Positions 5,050-53,264 of a stretch of DNA of 64,000 nucleotides are shown piece after piece. How positions within the stretch are numbered: position 1 is the stretch's first letter; each line of letters opens with the position of its first letter. This DNA comes from a phage, in the sequence record PZ452581.1; one strand, written 5' to 3'. The notes below the pieces were generated by a model. That model did no database searches and was not told the DNA's origin. It saw nothing but the letters and a program-made list of their open reading frames with translations. Both the position numbers and the translations under genes were made by a program.

Positions 5050-5384
5050 TTCATAATCACCAGATAAGCAGATTTAGCAGTTTCAACACGATAAATTTCG
5101 TGACGAAGTTTAGTTATACTTTTAATAACAGAACTAATTATATTCTGCCCATCTTTAAAGCGGTTTTTCTTATCAATAAAAATTGCACCAACCATCTTTT
5201 TGTGAAGCTCAACCGGATACTTCGTCACAATAATAGCATCATACACAGAAGGATGAATACTATTCACTAGAGTATCATTCATTAAAGTTATTCTAATGAA
5301 CTGTGCTGTTTCAGAGTCAAGCGCTCTATGATCACCAGTATCATTTTCAAGACAATTATCAATTATATCAGTTAAATTCATCAT
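5046..5384 (-). CDS. hypothetical protein (cd.x block)
   Basis: 112-aa ORF, ATGA-type overlap with cd. Confidence 0.55.
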   Translation of the reverse strand: MMNLTDIIDNCLENDTGDHRALDSETAQFIRITLMNDTLVNSIHPSVYDAIIVTKYPVELHKKMVGAIFIDKKNRFKDGQNIISSVIKSITKLRHEIYRVETAKSAYLVIMK

Positions 5385-12371: not shown

Positions 12372-14636
12372 TCATAATTTACAGGATGAACAATCTTCAG
12401 CTTTTGGAGTTTCTATTTCATAATCATCAGTACCAGAACCATCGCGAGTATTATGATAATAGAAATTTTTTCCGCCAAAATACCAAAAATACAAAAGGTC
12501 ATCAATCATTATTGACATTGGAACCTTTCCTTTTGGAAAAATCTGCGGGTCATAATATGTATTCGCTGAAGCTGATTGACATACCCATTTAAGCATAATA
12601 GCTACCTGCGTAAGATAAGGTTTATTACCTTTCTTAGCTAATTTCCACGTATAATCATAGAGGTCTATGTTATGCTCAATATTGGGCACGACTTGATTAA
12701 AGGAACCCTCTTTTGATTCTTTAACAGAGACTGGTCCACGTGGAGGCTCGATACCGTTTGTACTGTTAGAAACTTGGGAAGATGACTCACATGGCATAAG
12801 TGCTGATAATGTGCTATTACGGATGCCAAAGAGCTTAAGGTCTTCCCGCAGCGACGACCAGTCACAAACGTATTTTGGAGCTGCGATTTGGTCAATCTTT
12901 TTATTGTACCAGTCGATAGGTAATTCGCCTCGAGACCAACGAGTGTCTGAATAATATTCGCAAGGTCCTTTTTCTTTGGCGAGTTTAATGGATGCTTTAA
13001 TGAGTCCATACTGTAATCTCTCAAATAGTTCATGTGTTAAATCGTTAGCATCTTCATAAGAAGCAAAATTACTTGCCAGCCAAGCTGCATAGTTAGTAAC
13101 ACCTACACCGAGATTTCGACGCTTTTTAGCTTTTTCTGCTTCAGGAACTGGATATCCTTGGTAATCCAAAAGATTATCAAGAGCACGAACTTGAACTTCT
13201 GCCAATTCATTAATTTTATCTTGGTCTTGCCAATCGAAGTTATCTAACACAAATGCAGATAACGTACACAGTCCAATTTCGGCATCAGGACTATTCACGT
13301 CATTTGTTGGAATAGCAATTTCACAACACAAGTTGCTCTGACGAATAGGTGCCTTTTCACGAATAAATGGAGTATAGTTATTCGTATTATCAATGAACTG
13401 CACATAAATCCTTGCTGTTCCTGAGCGTTCAGTCATGAGTAATTCAAACAGTTCACGGGCTTTAATACGCTTTTTACGAATATTAGGGTCTTTTTCTGCG
13501 GCTTCATATAATTCACGGAAACGGTCTTGGTCTTTAAAATAAGAATAATAAAGCTCACCACCCATTTCATGCGGACTGAACAAAGTAATGTAATCATTCC
13601 TTCCGAATCGTTCCATCATTAGGTCATTCAGTTGAACGCCATAATCCATATGACGGATACGGTTTTCTTCTACACCTTTGTTATTTTTCAAAACGAGAAG
13701 ATTTTCAACTTCCAAATGCCAAATAGGATAATAAGCAGTAGCAGCGCCGCCACGAATTCCACCCTGTGAGCATGATTTAACAGCAGTCTGAAAATGTTTC
13801 CAAAAAGGAATAACACCAGTATGACGTACTTCACCTGTGCCAATCTTAGAACCTTCAGCACGAATCATACCAACGTTAATACCAATTCCAGCGCGTTTGG
13901 AGATATATTCAACAATTGAAGCGGAAGCCTTATTGATAGACTTCAGCGAATCACCTGCCTCAATAACAACACATGAACTAAACTGTCGAGTCGGAGTACG
14001 ACAGCCAGCCATAATAGGAGTTGGCAATGAAATCTGTCGAGTAGATACTGCTTCATAAAAACGAATAACATGTTTTAATCTATCAACAGGTTCATCTTGA
14101 TGTAATGCCATTCCAATAGTCATAAATGCAAACTGTGGAGTTTCATAAATTTGACCAGTGGTTTTATCTTTAACTAAATATTTTTCTTTTAATTGCATCG
14201 CCCCGGAATAAGTAAATTCCATATCCCGCTCATGCTTAATTTTTGATTCTAAAAATGTAATTTCTTCGGCAGAATATTTTGACAACAATTCAGGGTCGTA
14301 TTTACCTTCATTTACACAGTAAGAAATATGGTCAATAAATGAGCATGGTTCATACTGACCATAAACATGCTTACGAAGAGCGAACATTAAACAGCGTGCA
14401 GCTACGTATTGATAATCAGGCTCTTCAACCGAAATAGAATTCGCAGCAGCCTTAATTACAATGGTTTGAATGTCATCAGTGGTCATTCCATCACGGAGAT
14501 ATGATTTAATATTTTCATATAATTCATAAGGATCTACAGATGTTCCTTCAGCTGCCCAAGATAAAACTTTAATAATTTTTTGCGGGTCAAAGCTCTGAGA
14601 AACACCACTACTTTTGATAATATTAATTAATTGCAT
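12372..14636 (-). CDS. nrdA: ribonucleotide reductase large subunit (class Ia R1)
   Basis: 754 aa; N-terminal ATP-cone, active-site SNLCCEI. Confidence 0.9.
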   Translation of the reverse strand: MQLINIIKSSGVSQSFDPQKIIKVLSWAAEGTSVDPYELYENIKSYLRDGMTTDDIQTIVIKAAANSISVEEPDYQYVAARCLMFALRKHVYGQYEPCSFIDHISYCVNEGKYDPELLSKYSAEEITFLESKIKHERDMEFTYSGAMQLKEKYLVKDKTTGQIYETPQFAFMTIGMALHQDEPVDRLKHVIRFYEAVSTRQISLPTPIMAGCRTPTRQFSSCVVIEAGDSLKSINKASASIVEYISKRAGIGINVGMIRAEGSKIGTGEVRHTGVIPFWKHFQTAVKSCSQGGIRGGAATAYYPIWHLEVENLLVLKNNKGVEENRIRHMDYGVQLNDLMMERFGRNDYITLFSPHEMGGELYYSYFKDQDRFRELYEAAEKDPNIRKKRIKARELFELLMTERSGTARIYVQFIDNTNNYTPFIREKAPIRQSNLCCEIAIPTNDVNSPDAEIGLCTLSAFVLDNFDWQDQDKINELAEVQVRALDNLLDYQGYPVPEAEKAKKRRNLGVGVTNYAAWLASNFASYEDANDLTHELFERLQYGLIKASIKLAKEKGPCEYYSDTRWSRGELPIDWYNKKIDQIAAPKYVCDWSSLREDLKLFGIRNSTLSALMPCESSSQVSNSTNGIEPPRGPVSVKESKEGSFNQVVPNIEHNIDLYDYTWKLAKKGNKPYLTQVAIMLKWVCQSASANTYYDPQIFPKGKVPMSIMIDDLLYFWYFGGKNFYYHNTRDGSGTDDYEIETPKAEDCSSCKL

Positions 14637-14953
14637 AAGTCCTCAACTTGAAAATCGTCTTTAAACAATCGGTTAACTATATGAGCTATTATATCACCAT
14701 GACACGGCTTTGGTTTACATGTGCATCCTAGCCTCATTCCACGTAAAGGCTCTAAATGTGCTTTAGTTATTTCTCCGGATTTAATTCGACGTATAAAATC
14801 TTTTTTGAATAATTCAATGGCAGCCTCCCGGCTGCCAGCATCTTTACCGACGTAATTTCCCCAAAATGTACCACGGTGAATATTAACATCAAAGTCGGAT
14901 TTATATTTATTCACTACCCGGCATAGACGGCCCGCGTGGTAATAATTCGTCAT
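14627..14953 (-). CDS. hypothetical Cys/His-motif protein (nrdA.1-like position)
   Basis: 108-aa ORF; [11 protein letters not shown] motif. Confidence 0.55.
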
Positions 14954-15193: not shown

Positions 15194-16054
15194 TTACACC
15201 GCCATCTTTCCTTTCAAGACACCATGGGACTGATAATCTTTGAGAACGAAATCTCGTGCTGTCATATATTCAGTTAACCAATACATTTGAGTTTCAGTAT
15301 CGCATTGACTGAATCCATTAGGCCAATTAATACTGAGTTTGCATAGATCCATAGGAGTTCTATTTAATATCTCTTTGCATTGCTCAATATGGTTAGAATA
15401 AATGTGTGTATTACCACCCGAGAATACCAAATCGCCCGGAACTAGTTCACACATGTCAGCAACAATATGCAAAAGAGCAGCATAACTCGCGATGTTAAAT
15501 GGAAGACCGAGGAAAACATCTACCGAACGTTGATACCATTGGAGGTCAAGGTATCCGTTACGCACATTAAACTGATAGAACATATGACAAGGAGGTAATG
15601 CCATCTGCTTGAGTTCAGCTGGATTCCATGCCGACACAATTTGACGCCTATCGTTGGGAAATGTTTTAATACGATTAACAACTTCTACAATTTGATCTAC
15701 ACCACCAAAATCACGCCACTGTTTTCCGTAAATTGGACCAAGTTCACCGCTATGATAACCTAAGTCTTTGGCCTGGTTTTCGTAGTTTTCATCCCAAATT
15801 GTTTTTCCTGCAATTAAAGATCCATGAGTACGTTGACGTAAATCATTTACGTTAGTACTTCCTGATAAGAACCACAATAACTCAGAAATACATGCATTCC
15901 AGGCGAGCTTCTTAGTCGTTACTGCAGGAAAACCTTTAGTTAAATCCCAGCGTAATTTAGTACCGAACAAAGCAATTGTTCCTGTGCCTGTTCGGTCATC
16001 AGTTTCATAGCCATTTTCAAAAATGTCTTTAATTAAATCTTGGTATTGTTTCAT
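15194..16054 (-). CDS. td: thymidylate synthase
   Basis: 286 aa uninterrupted; ThyA active-site LPPCH; no group I intron. Confidence 0.95.
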   Translation of the reverse strand: MKQYQDLIKDIFENGYETDDRTGTGTIALFGTKLRWDLTKGFPAVTTKKLAWNACISELLWFLSGSTNVNDLRQRTHGSLIAGKTIWDENYENQAKDLGYHSGELGPIYGKQWRDFGGVDQIVEVVNRIKTFPNDRRQIVSAWNPAELKQMALPPCHMFYQFNVRNGYLDLQWYQRSVDVFLGLPFNIASYAALLHIVADMCELVPGDLVFSGGNTHIYSNHIEQCKEILNRTPMDLCKLSINWPNGFSQCDTETQMYWLTEYMTARDFVLKDYQSHGVLKGKMAV

Positions 16055-16098
16055 TTAGTACCTTATATAAATTATAATACATTTTATGAAGCTAATAA

Positions 16099-16446
16099 TC
16101 AATACGGTTTAGCATCAAATTTTCTTTCAATTTCAGGCGTAAAATACAATTCTTTACCACGCTTGGAAAAGCGACCAATAATATGATAATTATTCTCATC
16201 AAACGTGATATTGCCGATATCCATAGCTTTCAACCAAATATCGATATTTCTGTCAAGCTTTATATCAAAATTCCAATACGGAGAACTATTACCGAAAATA
16301 CTACAAGCGGATTCAGTGAAACAACTGCTATAAATCTTGTCTTTAGGAACTACTAATTGATAGACGCCTTTAATAAACTGAGGACCCTGCCATTTTGGTT
16401 GTTTCGCGTCTTTTTCTAATAGAATAGGGTAATAATTAAAATTCAT
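16099..16446 (-). CDS. hypothetical protein inserted between frd and td
   Basis: 115-aa ORF occupying the frd-td junction. Confidence 0.5.
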   Translation of the reverse strand: MNFNYYPILLEKDAKQPKWQGPQFIKGVYQLVVPKDKIYSSCFTESACSIFGNSSPYWNFDIKLDRNIDIWLKAMDIGNITFDENNYHIIGRFSKRGKELYFTPEIERKFDAKPY

Positions 16447-16465
16447 ATTTTCCGCCAGCGTTATT

Positions 16466-17292
<827 letters not shown>

Positions 17293-19019: not shown

Positions 19020-19928
19020 TTAAAGGTCATTCAAAAGGTCATCCAGGTCCGTGTCATCAGCACTAGATGAACTGCCAGAGCTTGAGCTCATAAAATCATC
19101 TTCAGTTTTTGTGTTAAAATCATCAACATTGAATGCATCCAAATCATCAGCAACTTTATCAGCTTTCTTAGCAGCAGTTGCAGCGGCACCGCCCATCACA
19201 GCAGTTCCCATAACTTGACCGAATTTAGTATTCAGTTCTTCAAACGATTTGAATTTATCTTTAGAAGTCATTTCAGAAAGGTCAACCATTTGTTCGAACA
19301 GTTCTTTCTGGAAAGATTCATCGTCAATGTTTGGAATCGCAGATTGATTCAGGAATTTAGATTCGTCGTAGTTACTAAATCCAGAAACTTGTTTAACTTT
19401 CAGTACAAAGTTAGCACCTTCCCACGGACAAGTTACATCAACCGGAGTTTCACCCATTTCAACATCAACTGCAATCATTGCGTTGATTTTATCCCAGATT
19501 TTCTTACCGAAACGGTATTTAAATACTTTACCTTCATTTTCTGGAGCAGCTGGGTCTTTTACTACAAGAATGTTAGCCCAGTAAGAAGTTTTACGTTTAA
19601 CAAGACTGTACTCTTTATTGTCAGTGTTGTACAAATCATTTTTACTGATGTACTGACATACTGGACAAGAATCGTAATCACCGTGGGTAGATGAGCAATT
19701 TTCGATATACCATTTACCGTTTTTCTTGAAACCGTGATTTACAAGAATTGCGAATGGTGCTTGTTCATCATTTTTAGACGGAAGAAAACGAATTACTGCT
19801 TGACCGTTACCCGCATTGTCGAGTTTCAGTTTCCACTCGCCTTTATCTTCAGAAGAAAAACCACCTTTATTTCCAGCCAATTTAGCCATTTGTGCAGCGA
19901 GTTCAGCAGTAGATTTACGTTTAAACAT
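19020..19928 (-). CDS. 32: single-stranded DNA-binding protein
   Basis: 302 aa; [17 protein letters not shown]..., acidic Ser/Asp-rich C-terminus; recognised as T4 gp32. Confidence 0.95.
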
Positions 19929-22293: not shown

Positions 22294-25200
22294 ATGGCCG
22301 AGATTAAAAGAAAGTTCAGAGCAGAAGATGGTCTGGACGCAGGTGGTGATAAAATAATCAACGTAGCTTTAGCTGATCGTACCGTAGGAACTGACGGTGT
22401 TAACGTTGATTACCTAATTCAAGAAAACACAGTTCAACAATACGATCCAACTCGTGGATATTTAAAAGATTTTGTAATCATTTATGATAACCGCTTTTGG
22501 GCTGCTATAAATGATATTCCAAAACCGGCAGGAGCTTTTAATAGCGGGCGCTGGAGAGCATTACGTACTGATGCTAACTGGATTACAGTTTCATCTGGTT
22601 CATATCAATTAAAATCCGGTGAAGCTATTTCGGTTAACACTGCAGCTGGTAATGATATTACATTTACTTTACCATCTACTCCAATTGACGGTGATACTAT
22701 CGTTCTCCAAGACATTGGAGGAAAACCTGGAGTTAACCAAGTTTTAATTGTAGCTCCAGTACAAAGTATTGTAAACTTTAGAGGCGAACAAGTACGTTCA
22801 GTACTAATGACTCATCCAAAGTCACAGTTAGTTTTAATTTTTAGTAATCGTCTGTGGCAAATGTATGTAGCTGATTATAGTAGAGAAGCTGTAGTTGTAA
22901 CACCAGCGAATACTTATCAAGCGCAATCCAACGATTTTATCGTACGTAGATTTACTTCTGCTGCACCGATAAATATTAAACTTCCGAGATTTGCTAATCA
23001 TGGCGATATTATTAATTTCGTCGATTTGGATAAATTAAATCCGCTTTATCATACAATTGTTACAACATATGATGAAACCACTTCAGTACAAGAAGTTGGA
23101 ACTCATTCTATTGAAGGCCGTACATCTATTGACGGTTTCTTGATGTATGACGATAATGAGAAATTATGGAGATTATTTGACGGGGACAGTAAAGCACGTT
23201 TACGTATCATAACAACTAATTCAAACATTCGTCCAAATGAAGAAGTTATGGTATTTGGTGCGAATAATGGAACAACTCAAACAATTGAGCTTCAGCTTCC
23301 AACTAATATTTCTGTTGGTGATACTGTTAAAATTTCCATGAATTACATGAGAAAAGGACAAACAGTTAAAATCAAAGCTGCCGGTGAAGATAAAATTGCT
23401 TCTTCAGTTCAATTGCTGCAATTCCCAAAACGTTCAGAATATCCGCCTGAAACTAAATGGGTAACTGTTCAAGAATTAGTTTTTAACGGTGAAACTAATT
23501 ATGTTCCAGTTTTACAGCTTGCTTATATAGAAGATTCTGATGGAAAATACTGGGTTGTACAACAAAACGTTCCAACCGTAGAAAGAGTTGATTCTTTAAA
23601 TGATTCTACTAGAGCAAGATTAGGCGTAATTGCTTTAGCTACACAGGCTCAAGCTAACGTCGATTTAGAAAATTCTCCACAAAAAGAATTAGCAATTACT
23701 CCAGAAACATTAGCTAACCGTACTGCTACAGAAACTCGTAGAGGTATCGCAAGAATAGCAACTACTGCTCAAGTGAATCAGAACACCACATTCTCTTTTG
23801 CTGATGATATTATCATCACTCCTAAAAAGCTGAATGAAAGAACTGCTACAGAAACTCGCAGAGGTGTTGCAGAAATTGCTACTCAGCAAGAAACAAACGC
23901 AGGAACAGATGATACAACCATCATTACTCCTAAAAAGCTTCAAGCTCGTCAAGGTTCTGAATCATTATCTGGTATTGTAACTTTTGTATCTACTGCAGGT
24001 GCTACTCCAGCTTCTAGCCGTGAATTAAATGGTACGAATGTTTATAATAAAAACACTAATAATTTAGTTGTTTCGCCAAAAGCTTTGGATCAATATAAAG
24101 CTACTCCAACGCAACAAGGTGCAGTAATTTTAGCAGTTGAAAGTGAAGTAATTGCTGGACAAAGCCAAGAAGGATGGGCAAATGCGGTTGTAACGCCAGA
24201 AACGTTACATAAAAAGACATCAACTGATGCAAGAATTGGTTTAATTGAAATTGCTACGCAAAGTGAAGTTAATACAGGAACTGATTATACTCGTGCAGTC
24301 ACTCCTAAAACTTTAAATGACCGTAGAGCAACTGAAAGTTTAAGTGGTATAGCTGAAATTGCTACACAAGTTGAATTCGACGCAGGCGTCGACGATACTC
24401 GTATCTCTACACCATTAAAAATTAAAACCAGATTTAATAGTACTGATCGTACTTCTGTTGTTGCTCTATCTGGATTAGTTGAATCAGGAACTCTCTGGGA
24501 CCATTATACCCTTAATATTCTTGAAGCAAATGAGACGCAACGTGGTACACTTCGTGTAGCTACACAAGTTGAAGCTGCTGCAGGAACATTAGATAATGTT
24601 TTAATAACTCCTAAAAAGCTTTTAGGTACTAAATCTACCGAATCGCAAGAAGGTGTTATTAAAGTTGCAACTCAAGCTGAAACCGTAGCTGGAACATCAG
24701 CAAATACTGCTGTATCTCCAAAAAATTTAAAATGGATTGTGCAGAGTGAACCTACTTGGGCAGCTACTACTGCAATAAGAGGTTTTGTTAAAACTTCATC
24801 TGGTTCAATTACATTCGTTGGTAATGATACAGTCGGTTCTACCCAAGATTTAGAACTGTATGAGAAAAATAGCTATGCGGTATCACCATATGAATTAAAC
24901 CGTGTATTAGCAAATTATTTGCCATTAAAAGCAAAAGCTGCTGATACAAATTTATTGGATGGTCTAGATTCATCTCAGTTCATTCGTAGGGATATCGCAC
25001 AGACGGTTAATGGTTCACTAACCTTAACCCAACAAACGAATCTGAGTGCCCCTCTTGTATCATCTAGTACTGCTACGTTTGGTGGATCAGTTTCGGCAAA
25101 TAGTACATTAACTATTTCTAATACTGGAACGGCAACTCGTCTGATTTTTGAGAAAGGACCTCAAACTGGAACTAACCCAGCACAGACGATGACTATCAGA

Positions 25201-45871: not shown

Positions 45872-45937
45872 TTATCCTCGTTTGGTTTCGGGAATATTAT
45901 ACTCCGGTAATCATAAAGCTAAAGGCCCGAAGGCCTT

Positions 45938-53208: not shown

Positions 53209-53264
53209 AATTTTATGAAAAATGCTTCAAAAATTTCATGGTATAATGAATCTAAGTCCTTCCA

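Follow-up and report, generated by a model that had tools for sequence, protein, structure and literature searches.

A conserved small gene between frd and td of T-even phages, probably missing from T4 through deletion

Phage T4 carries its dihydrofolate reductase gene (frd) and its thymidylate synthase gene (td) in direct contact, and in the phage DNA analysed here (sequence record PZ452581.1) a further open reading frame lies between them. The locus raises the question of whether this frame entered the junction as an extra element or is an old gene that T4 is missing. The window referred to below is the whole 64,000-nt stretch that was analysed; it is a mosaic Tequatrovirus sequence whose best 22-kb match is 96% identical. 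An initial annotation, made from the letters alone, had described a 348-nt ORF between frd and td as something extra, at a site known to attract mobile insertions. The ORF was recovered on the minus strand at 16099-16446 and is called ORF115 here. The genes follow one another on that strand in the T4 order, with ORF115 in its place: gp32, frd.3, frd.2, frd.1, frd, ORF115, td, nrdA.2, nrdA.1 and nrdA. The features of the locus are as follows.

19020-19928, minus strand: gp32
16466-17047, minus strand: frd (dihydrofolate reductase, 193 aa); the translation ends in ...ESVYK and stop, matching T4 and T2 Frd
16447-16465, minus strand: frd-ORF115 spacer, 19 nt, with Shine-Dalgarno-like GGCGGA at 16451-16456
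16099-16446, minus strand: ORF115, 115 aa, ATG to TGA, from the ORF listing
16055-16098, minus strand: ORF115-td spacer, 44 nt, with TATAAT at 16071-16076 and the td Shine-Dalgarno AAGG at 16061-16064
15194-16054, minus strand: td (thymidylate synthase, 286 aa, intronless), from the ORF listing

The start of frd was placed at the ATG at 17045-17047 (MIKLVF...), and an upstream in-frame ATG (ORF 16466-17074) was rejected as the start. GGCGGA is placed 5 nt ahead of the ORF115 ATG and AAGG 6 nt ahead of the td ATG. The frd-ORF115 spacer is kept in T2, T6, KarlGJung and N2; the Mosigvirus-like phage NHEP29 has no such spacer, and there the frd TGA overlaps the ORF115 ATG (ATGA). The reading preferred here, with a probability of roughly 0.75, is that ORF115 is a genuine, non-inserted gene that T4 lost by deletion and that its product is probably a non-catalytic binding protein.

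That ORF115 encodes a protein is indicated by the way in which it has changed. Its protein is 100% identical to the corresponding proteins of T2, T6, RB14, AR1, PP01 and RB3, and the nucleotide differences are 15 synonymous and 0 non-synonymous against T2, and 16 and 0 against T6. Against the Mosigvirus-type copies 27-35 synonymous and 9-11 non-synonymous differences were counted. Over all pairs of Tequatrovirus and Mosigvirus copies the pairwise dN/dS was 0-0.058 and for frd in the same genomes 0.05-0.29, so that by dN/dS ORF115 is under tighter constraint than frd. Such a substitution pattern excludes a chance ORF or a decaying gene. Judged from sequence, ORF115 is a genuine protein-coding gene of the putative prereplicative frd-td-nrd transcription unit. 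It is also already known from hundreds of database records, which describe the product as hypothetical, and the finding here is not new: the exact sequence was found on 341 contigs and bears the name 'hypothetical protein' every time. Literature searches found no publication on ORF115 expression or function.

The frd/td overlap in T4, from which the initial annotation had started, was confirmed in NC_000866, where frd occupies 145109-145690 and td ends at 145112, with a 4-nt ATGA overlap. In the window the two ends that meet in T4 carry the same short sequence.

16464-16472, minus strand: first copy of the direct repeat TAAATGAAA, covering the last frd codon and the TGA stop (16466-16468)
16049-16057, minus strand: second copy of TAAATGAAA, spanning the td start codon (16052-16054)

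These two 9-nt copies are 415 bp apart, and T4 has exactly one. On the coding strand the end of frd in the window reads ...GTATA[TAAATGAAA]TAACGC... and the start of td reads ...GGTAC[TAAATGAAA]CAATACC..., while the T4 junction reads ...GTATA[TAAATGAAA]CAATACC... (compared stretch GTATATAAATGAAACAATACC). The window and T4 share the same two genes and flanks, and removal of the 415 bp between the repeats from the window gives the T4 junction exactly, with both proteins unchanged. They differ in that frd and td are uncoupled in the window, with ORF115 and two spacers between them, and in that the window td is provided with a Shine-Dalgarno of its own and with a middle-promoter-like site, unlike the overlap arrangement of T4. 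The T4 state would have arisen by a 415-bp microhomology deletion between the TAAATGAAA repeats that joined the frd stop to the td start, and the same event would have taken out the middle-promoter-like site ahead of td. The direct junction of T4 is accordingly treated here as probably derived; its direction is drawn mainly from the phylogenetic distribution given below, because the repeat is partly forced by coding (frd ends in K-stop and td begins M-K).

The ATGA at the end of frd also serves as the coupled start of ORF115 in NHEP29 and of an unrelated 68-aa ORF in phage pSs-1, which suggests that the frd terminus is a generic coupling site for whichever gene comes next. Deletion between short repeats at start sites recalls the PeSL model, according to which small ORFs of the hyperplastic regions of T4-type phages are shuffled via short conserved motifs (PMC2839356, PMC4122927). 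The likeness lies in small early ORFs that are indel-polymorphic among close relatives and in indel end-points that fall in short repeated regulatory or start-site sequences; the difference is that the repeat here is a 9-nt translation-start/stop junction and not a promoter-stem-loop cassette. Neither frd nor thymidylate synthase is mentioned in the PeSL paper PMC4122927. A two-codon mini-ORF, ATGAAATAA (16461-16469, minus strand), was also seen. It is formed by the first repeat copy and the bases that follow, overlaps the frd stop and is similar to the td start ATGAAACAA; the ORF115 Shine-Dalgarno comes shortly after it. A coupled junction could have left it as a relic, or it could influence re-initiation.

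The spacer ahead of td holds the signals that the T4 deletion would have removed. A promoter-like element and a Shine-Dalgarno for td had both been reported in the initial annotation, and both were found again (TATAAT and AAGG, at the positions listed above), together with a site like a MotA box.

16069-16092, minus strand: MotA-box-like ATTAGCTTCA (GCTTCA at 16087-16092), 12 nt, then TAATTT at 16069-16074, from a pattern match

In the MotA middle-promoter consensus the box (a/t)(a/t)(a/t)TGCTTtA precedes a -10 TAtaaT by 12 +/- 1 bp, with tolerance for single deviations (PMC2988021). Compared with the MotA box, ATTAGCTTCA has one mismatch (T to A) and uses the allowed t/c position, and TAATTT, 12 nt past the box, fits a TAnnnT -10, so that by sequence the site belongs to the class. 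For GCTTYA-N11-13-TANNNT the window has 25 matches as compared with 6.8 expected (3.7-fold), a number that 0 of 100 shuffles attain. The site is oriented correctly for td and is a middle-promoter-like site that may drive its transcription. A segment of ~29 nt that includes this promoter-like sequence was present in all five Tequatrovirus copies inspected (window, T2, T6, KarlGJung and N2); it is absent from the 13-15-nt Mosigvirus spacers and is gone in T4 along with ORF115. The spacer also contains a sigma-70 match, TTGATT-17-TATTAT, of a kind that occurs at chance level in AT-rich DNA; the sigma-70 scan of the window gave 19 promoters against 17.7 expected, which is chance level, and the terminator scan did not rise above the shuffled expectation. 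Elsewhere in the window, candidate middle promoters ending in TATAAT were noted at 5137-5161, 24503-24527 and 45896-45919 on the minus strand and at 53224-53247 on the plus strand. The T4 late-promoter consensus is TATAAATA. A 7/8 match to it, TATAAATT, lies inside the ORF115-td spacer at 16066-16073 on the plus (late-gene) strand and points antisense into ORF115 and frd.

The distribution of ORF115 was surveyed by tblastn, which placed the protein in 581 phage records, 363 of them at >=90% identity and 218, from other genera, at <60%. For the junctions the arrangement is described with three labels: A is the ORF115 type, B a paralog with an insertion in its first loop, and C the unrelated 68-aa ORF. 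A census of frd-td junctions counted ~363 records with ORF115, 59 with the direct T4-type junction and ~135 with the 68-aa ORF; of the 59, 24 are from Dhakavirus and 35 from the T4 group of Tequatrovirus, copies of T4 making up many of the latter. Within Tequatrovirus three states were met, namely A only (window, T2, T6, RB32), C only (pSs-1 type) and nothing (T4). The initial annotation had proposed an alignment of this junction across T-even genomes; the comparison upheld the absence of ORF115 from T4 and went against its insertion, since an ORF that is the majority state and occurs in at least 10 genera is hardly an extra element. The case in which relatives uniformly carry the ORF with a known function, which that annotation had held to be decisive against it, was found in part: most carry the ORF, which belongs to a family with no assigned function.

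At least 10 Tevenvirinae genera have a homolog with 26-43% identity as the next gene after frd, among them Kanagawavirus (Entb_45, PEi26), Jiaodavirus (Mineola), Roskildevirus (Cronus), Moonvirus, Winklervirus (CHI14), Kagamiyamavirus (EcS1), Gelderlandvirus (STML-198), Marfavirus (PWKp18) and Mosigvirus. Two metagenomic T4-like contigs also have a homolog after frd, one of which is the most distant family member found. The stop and start codons of the distant homologs mostly overlap those of their neighbours. Members of the protein family PHROG 1928, to which ORF115 belongs, sit between the dihydrofolate reductase and thymidylate synthase genes in every T4-like context examined (9 GenBank genera, Mosigvirus, T2, T6 and the two metagenome contigs).

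The ORF115 homolog is adjoined by a second ORF, 113-144 aa long, in most of the other genera. This ORF is a paralog of ORF115, with hmmsearch E values of 1e-12 to 1e-22 (the Cronus copy has 4e-6), and is likewise a member of PHROG 1928; a search of the 64-kb window with the family HMM gave no second ORF115 paralog elsewhere below E 0.5. A third ORF, the unrelated 68-aa one (phrog_9550), stands directly before td in some phages. The full set frd-A-B-C-td occurs in contig L019, Entb_45 and PWKp18. This arrangement, usually with overlapping stop and start codons, is the fullest seen and is probably ancestral.

Between genera, identity was 26-43% for ORF115, 43-52% for Frd and 70-78% for Td in the same comparisons, and within Tequatrovirus ORF115 and the flanking frd have matching dS values (0.29 and 0.26 against T2). 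Both observations fit vertical descent. The majority state, the synteny in at least 10 genera and the match in dS together argue that ORF115 is ancestral and T4 derived. Exchange has also occurred: between NHEP29 and the window, nucleotide identity is 82-95% over ORF115, 45-70% over frd and 55-85% over td, an island of similarity which indicates one or more lateral transfers of the cassette, presumably through ordinary recombination when phages co-infect a cell.

Several further features of these junctions were recorded. The 68-aa ORF lies at L012:3121-3327 (Shigella phage pSs-1), L003:3173-3379, L011:3148-3354 and L019:4670-4879, and is the alternative occupant of the junction in the ~135 records, which are of Tequatrovirus and Dhakavirus. 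It is coupled to frd via ATGA and to td via a 1-nt overlap, and it has relatives (~43% identity) outside the T4-like phages in the Phapecoctavirus-type phages phAPEC8 and ESCO13. In the Mosigvirus OLB35 the normal stop of frd (L014:1040-1657) is lost and the gene is 12 codons longer, ending in ...ESIYKNEIATGGKYEF before the stop; the extension crosses the spacer and runs over the ORF115 start.

The neighbouring genes vary as well. The Td proteins of the window and T2 share 228 of 286 residues and have a divergent C-terminal segment. The window td is mosaic relative to that of T2 (15230-15450): the 5' half and the flanks are 90-100% identical, and in the 3' part ~150-200 nt have 48-58% nucleotide identity, with ~45 C-terminal residues changed. 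For the gene as a whole dN is 0.14 and dS 1.0, while the adjacent ORF115 protein is identical. The td genes of T4 and T6 have an intron, and that of the window has none. The frd.1 stop and the frd start overlap by 1 nt in the window (TAATG, 17045-17049). This interval is variable, being a 71-nt gap in T4 and holding two additional ORFs of 119 and 81 aa in T6 (L013:442-1043) and KarlGJung and one of 81 aa in pSs-1 (L012:2295-2540). Farther along, nrdA.1 (14627-14953, minus strand) encodes 108 aa, matches phrog_464 and shares overlaps with nrdA.2 and with nrdA; Entb_45 and the metagenome contigs have counterparts that carry the label DUF4326 (PF14216).

The ORF115 protein has a mass of 13.6 kDa and a pI of 8.5 (family median 8.7). 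It matched the PHROG 1928 profile with E 8.4e-36, residues 4-111 aligning with profile positions 2-125 of 126. The same family includes the hypothetical proteins of T2, T6, RB14 and RB32 (RB32ORF229c), of which ORF115 is a member without any difference in kind. A profile search of 1.84 billion representative proteins gave ~40 clusters of PHROG 1928 at 50% identity. Its members are 95-139 aa long bar two fragments, and consist of a single domain with no fusions. Across 44 representatives from both paralog groups W19, G91, K95 and G97 are invariant and Q16, G27, Y29, F93 and F102 are >=90% conserved; the window ORF115 has all nine of these signature residues.

The structure was predicted using AlphaFold2, with pLDDT 79.6 from 11 sequences and pLDDT 90.4 and pTM 0.83 from 44. 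In both models DSSP assigned strands at 6-12, 27-34 and 62-64, a helix at 68-77, and strands at 80-82, 86-96 and 99-104. The predicted protein is a single-domain beta-barrel with one helix and an OB-like strand order. Of the conserved residues, Q16 and W19 belong to the beta1-beta2 loop, G27 and Y29 to the beginning of beta2, and G91, F93, K95 and G97 to the beta4-beta5 hairpin; they would map to the canonical positions of the OB ligand-binding face; paralog B carries its insertion in the beta1-beta2 loop. The fold class compared was that of the OB domains (RPA14/RPA32, Stn1-Ten1, Teb1, HIN, S1, SSB), to which the likeness of ORF115 is a predicted one.

Foldseek, with the pLDDT 79.6 model as query, gave nothing below E 0.8 in PDB, so that similarity to solved OB folds was not significant for that model, and in BFVD it gave uncharacterised proteins of T4-like phages only. 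A PDB sequence search with the 44-member profile gave unrelated proteins with a best E of 0.13, and scans of ORF115, the paralog and the 68-aa ORF against Pfam, NCBIfam and PADLOC gave no family. PHROG 1928 itself has no Pfam or NCBIfam model, solved structure or assigned function. The HMM and structure searches that the initial annotation had proposed for the 115-aa protein were thus answered by a match to PHROG 1928 and by no described family or PDB relative.

From the OB-like strand order and the conserved residues at ligand-face positions, and with a weak fold similarity, ORF115 would be a non-catalytic small beta-barrel that acts by binding a partner. Being absent from T4 and from about a third of the close relatives, it is not essential for thymidylate synthesis; it may be conditionally useful and dispensable under laboratory conditions. 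It would be co-expressed with frd and td. As for the partner, nucleic acid or a component of the co-expressed phage machinery for thymidylate and dNTP synthesis can be named only tentatively, and a host factor is a doubtful candidate. A role as a DNA mimic was considered and rejected, the family being mildly basic.

The last of these partners corresponds to the strongest alternative account, in which ORF115 is an accessory for anti-defence or host takeover that binds and inactivates some factor of the host, for instance a protein of immunity or of nucleotide depletion, and is retained only in lineages that meet the target. It is an improbable account with several observations in its favour. 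ORF115 varies in presence among near-identical phages, at a junction with three alternative states, and its divergence between genera outpaces that of Frd and Td. E. coli phages from two genera have it at 94-100% identity even though their frd is only 56% identical, which implies that it tracks the host or has been exchanged. The tandem paralog differs in the predicted binding loop, and the protein is small and single-domain and has no enzymatic signature. However, no similarity to any described family was seen, purifying selection is very strong, with no diversifying change among the Tequatrovirus and Mosigvirus-like copies compared, and the gene is fixed in place inside a nucleotide-metabolism operon, with translational coupling in most genera. 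No literature in support of this account was found.

The fixed position and the translational coupling, together with the OB-like fold, are also the support for a role in the thymidylate/dNTP module, although synteny is a weak functional argument because gene order in T4-like phages is conserved in general. In its most specific form, which is distinctly unlikely, PHROG 1928 (A and its paralog B) would provide the T-even thymidylate/folate module with an OB-like subunit or regulator that has not been described before. For example, A and B as a heterodimer, or A as a homodimer in phages of the T2 type, might anchor dihydrofolate reductase and thymidylate synthase on nucleic acid or on the dNTP-synthetase complex; alternatively, A and B might control frd-td translation.

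That ORF115 is a mobile insertion, or a degenerate free-standing homing-endonuclease gene, at the frd/td junction is very improbable and may be called largely refuted. The unit is flanked by the 9-nt direct repeat, its presence is polymorphic, it forms the island of high similarity between Mosigvirus-like and Tequatrovirus genomes, and BASEL phage records label it 'putative homing endonuclease'. Homing-endonuclease genes also occupy nearby sites (I-TevI in td, segG at 32/59, mobE at nrdA/nrdB). With the free-standing seg and mob genes ORF115 has in common that it is a small, polymorphic ORF amid conserved genes in an element-rich neighbourhood; it differs in having no nuclease domain and an unrelated predicted fold, and in being ancient, syntenic and strongly purified with no evidence of a recent sweep.

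The initial annotation had seen no nuclease motif in the 115-aa protein, and this proved correct, with 0 families in Pfam, NCBIfam and PADLOC and still 0 in Pfam at E up to 10. Among the 44 family members Pfam gave stray single matches at E 0.011 or worse and no GIY-YIG, HNH, LAGLIDADG or PD-(D/E)xK. A 115-aa protein with a predicted OB-like barrel would be unlike any homing-endonuclease fold. Syntenic homologs at 26-43% identity in at least 10 genera speak against a mobile insertion, and the equality of dS with the flanking frd within Tequatrovirus indicates no recent sweep of ORF115; a decaying endonuclease gene would not show dN/dS <0.06. T6 carries ORF115 as well as a td intron with I-TevI, which shows the two elements to be independent. 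The table of T4 homing endonucleases gives no insertion at frd/td (PMC2988022), which likewise does not favour a mobile origin.

In EcS1 (L009:4015-4773) a homing-endonuclease gene was observed between td and nrdA on the opposite strand, so the neighbourhood does take mobile insertions, at junctions other than frd/td. Conflicting product names for ORF115 were met in BW-1, pSe_SNUABM_01, SF2-1, Kelasse, JLBYU24, HMD-9, ADUt, KarlGJung and AdolfPortmann, and look like annotation-transfer errors. No search result supports the name 'putative homing endonuclease', nor 'putative dihydrofolate reductase' or 'putative glucose-1-phosphate adenylyltranseferase'.

The weakest alternative, that ORF115 is an accidental open frame in AT-rich DNA and the region a non-coding spacer or regulatory RNA, can point to the lack of an annotation in AY310907.2, the first T2 record, as well as in PP01 and Aplg8, but has a negligible probability in view of the excess of synonymous substitutions against T2 and the Mosigvirus-type copies, a frame kept in ~580 records, a confident structure prediction, and an Rfam scan of 15800-16700 whose matches were at chance level only, at less than half of the gathering score for the best (Yar_1 25 bits, gathering 50; U4 15, gathering 46).

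With ORF115 read as a genuine gene that T4 lost, a T4-centred view of this locus is corrected. The textbook overlap of frd and td would be a derived state, reached by deletion, and T-even phages commonly have one to three small genes at this junction. The function of ORF115 is a reasonable, modest target for experiment, given a constraint above that of frd and a position between the dihydrofolate reductase and thymidylate synthase genes that is constant over the T4-like contexts examined; such work would most naturally use T2 or T6, T4 being unusable. Were the thymidylate-module reading true, this component would have escaped notice for decades, the model phage T4 having happened to delete it.
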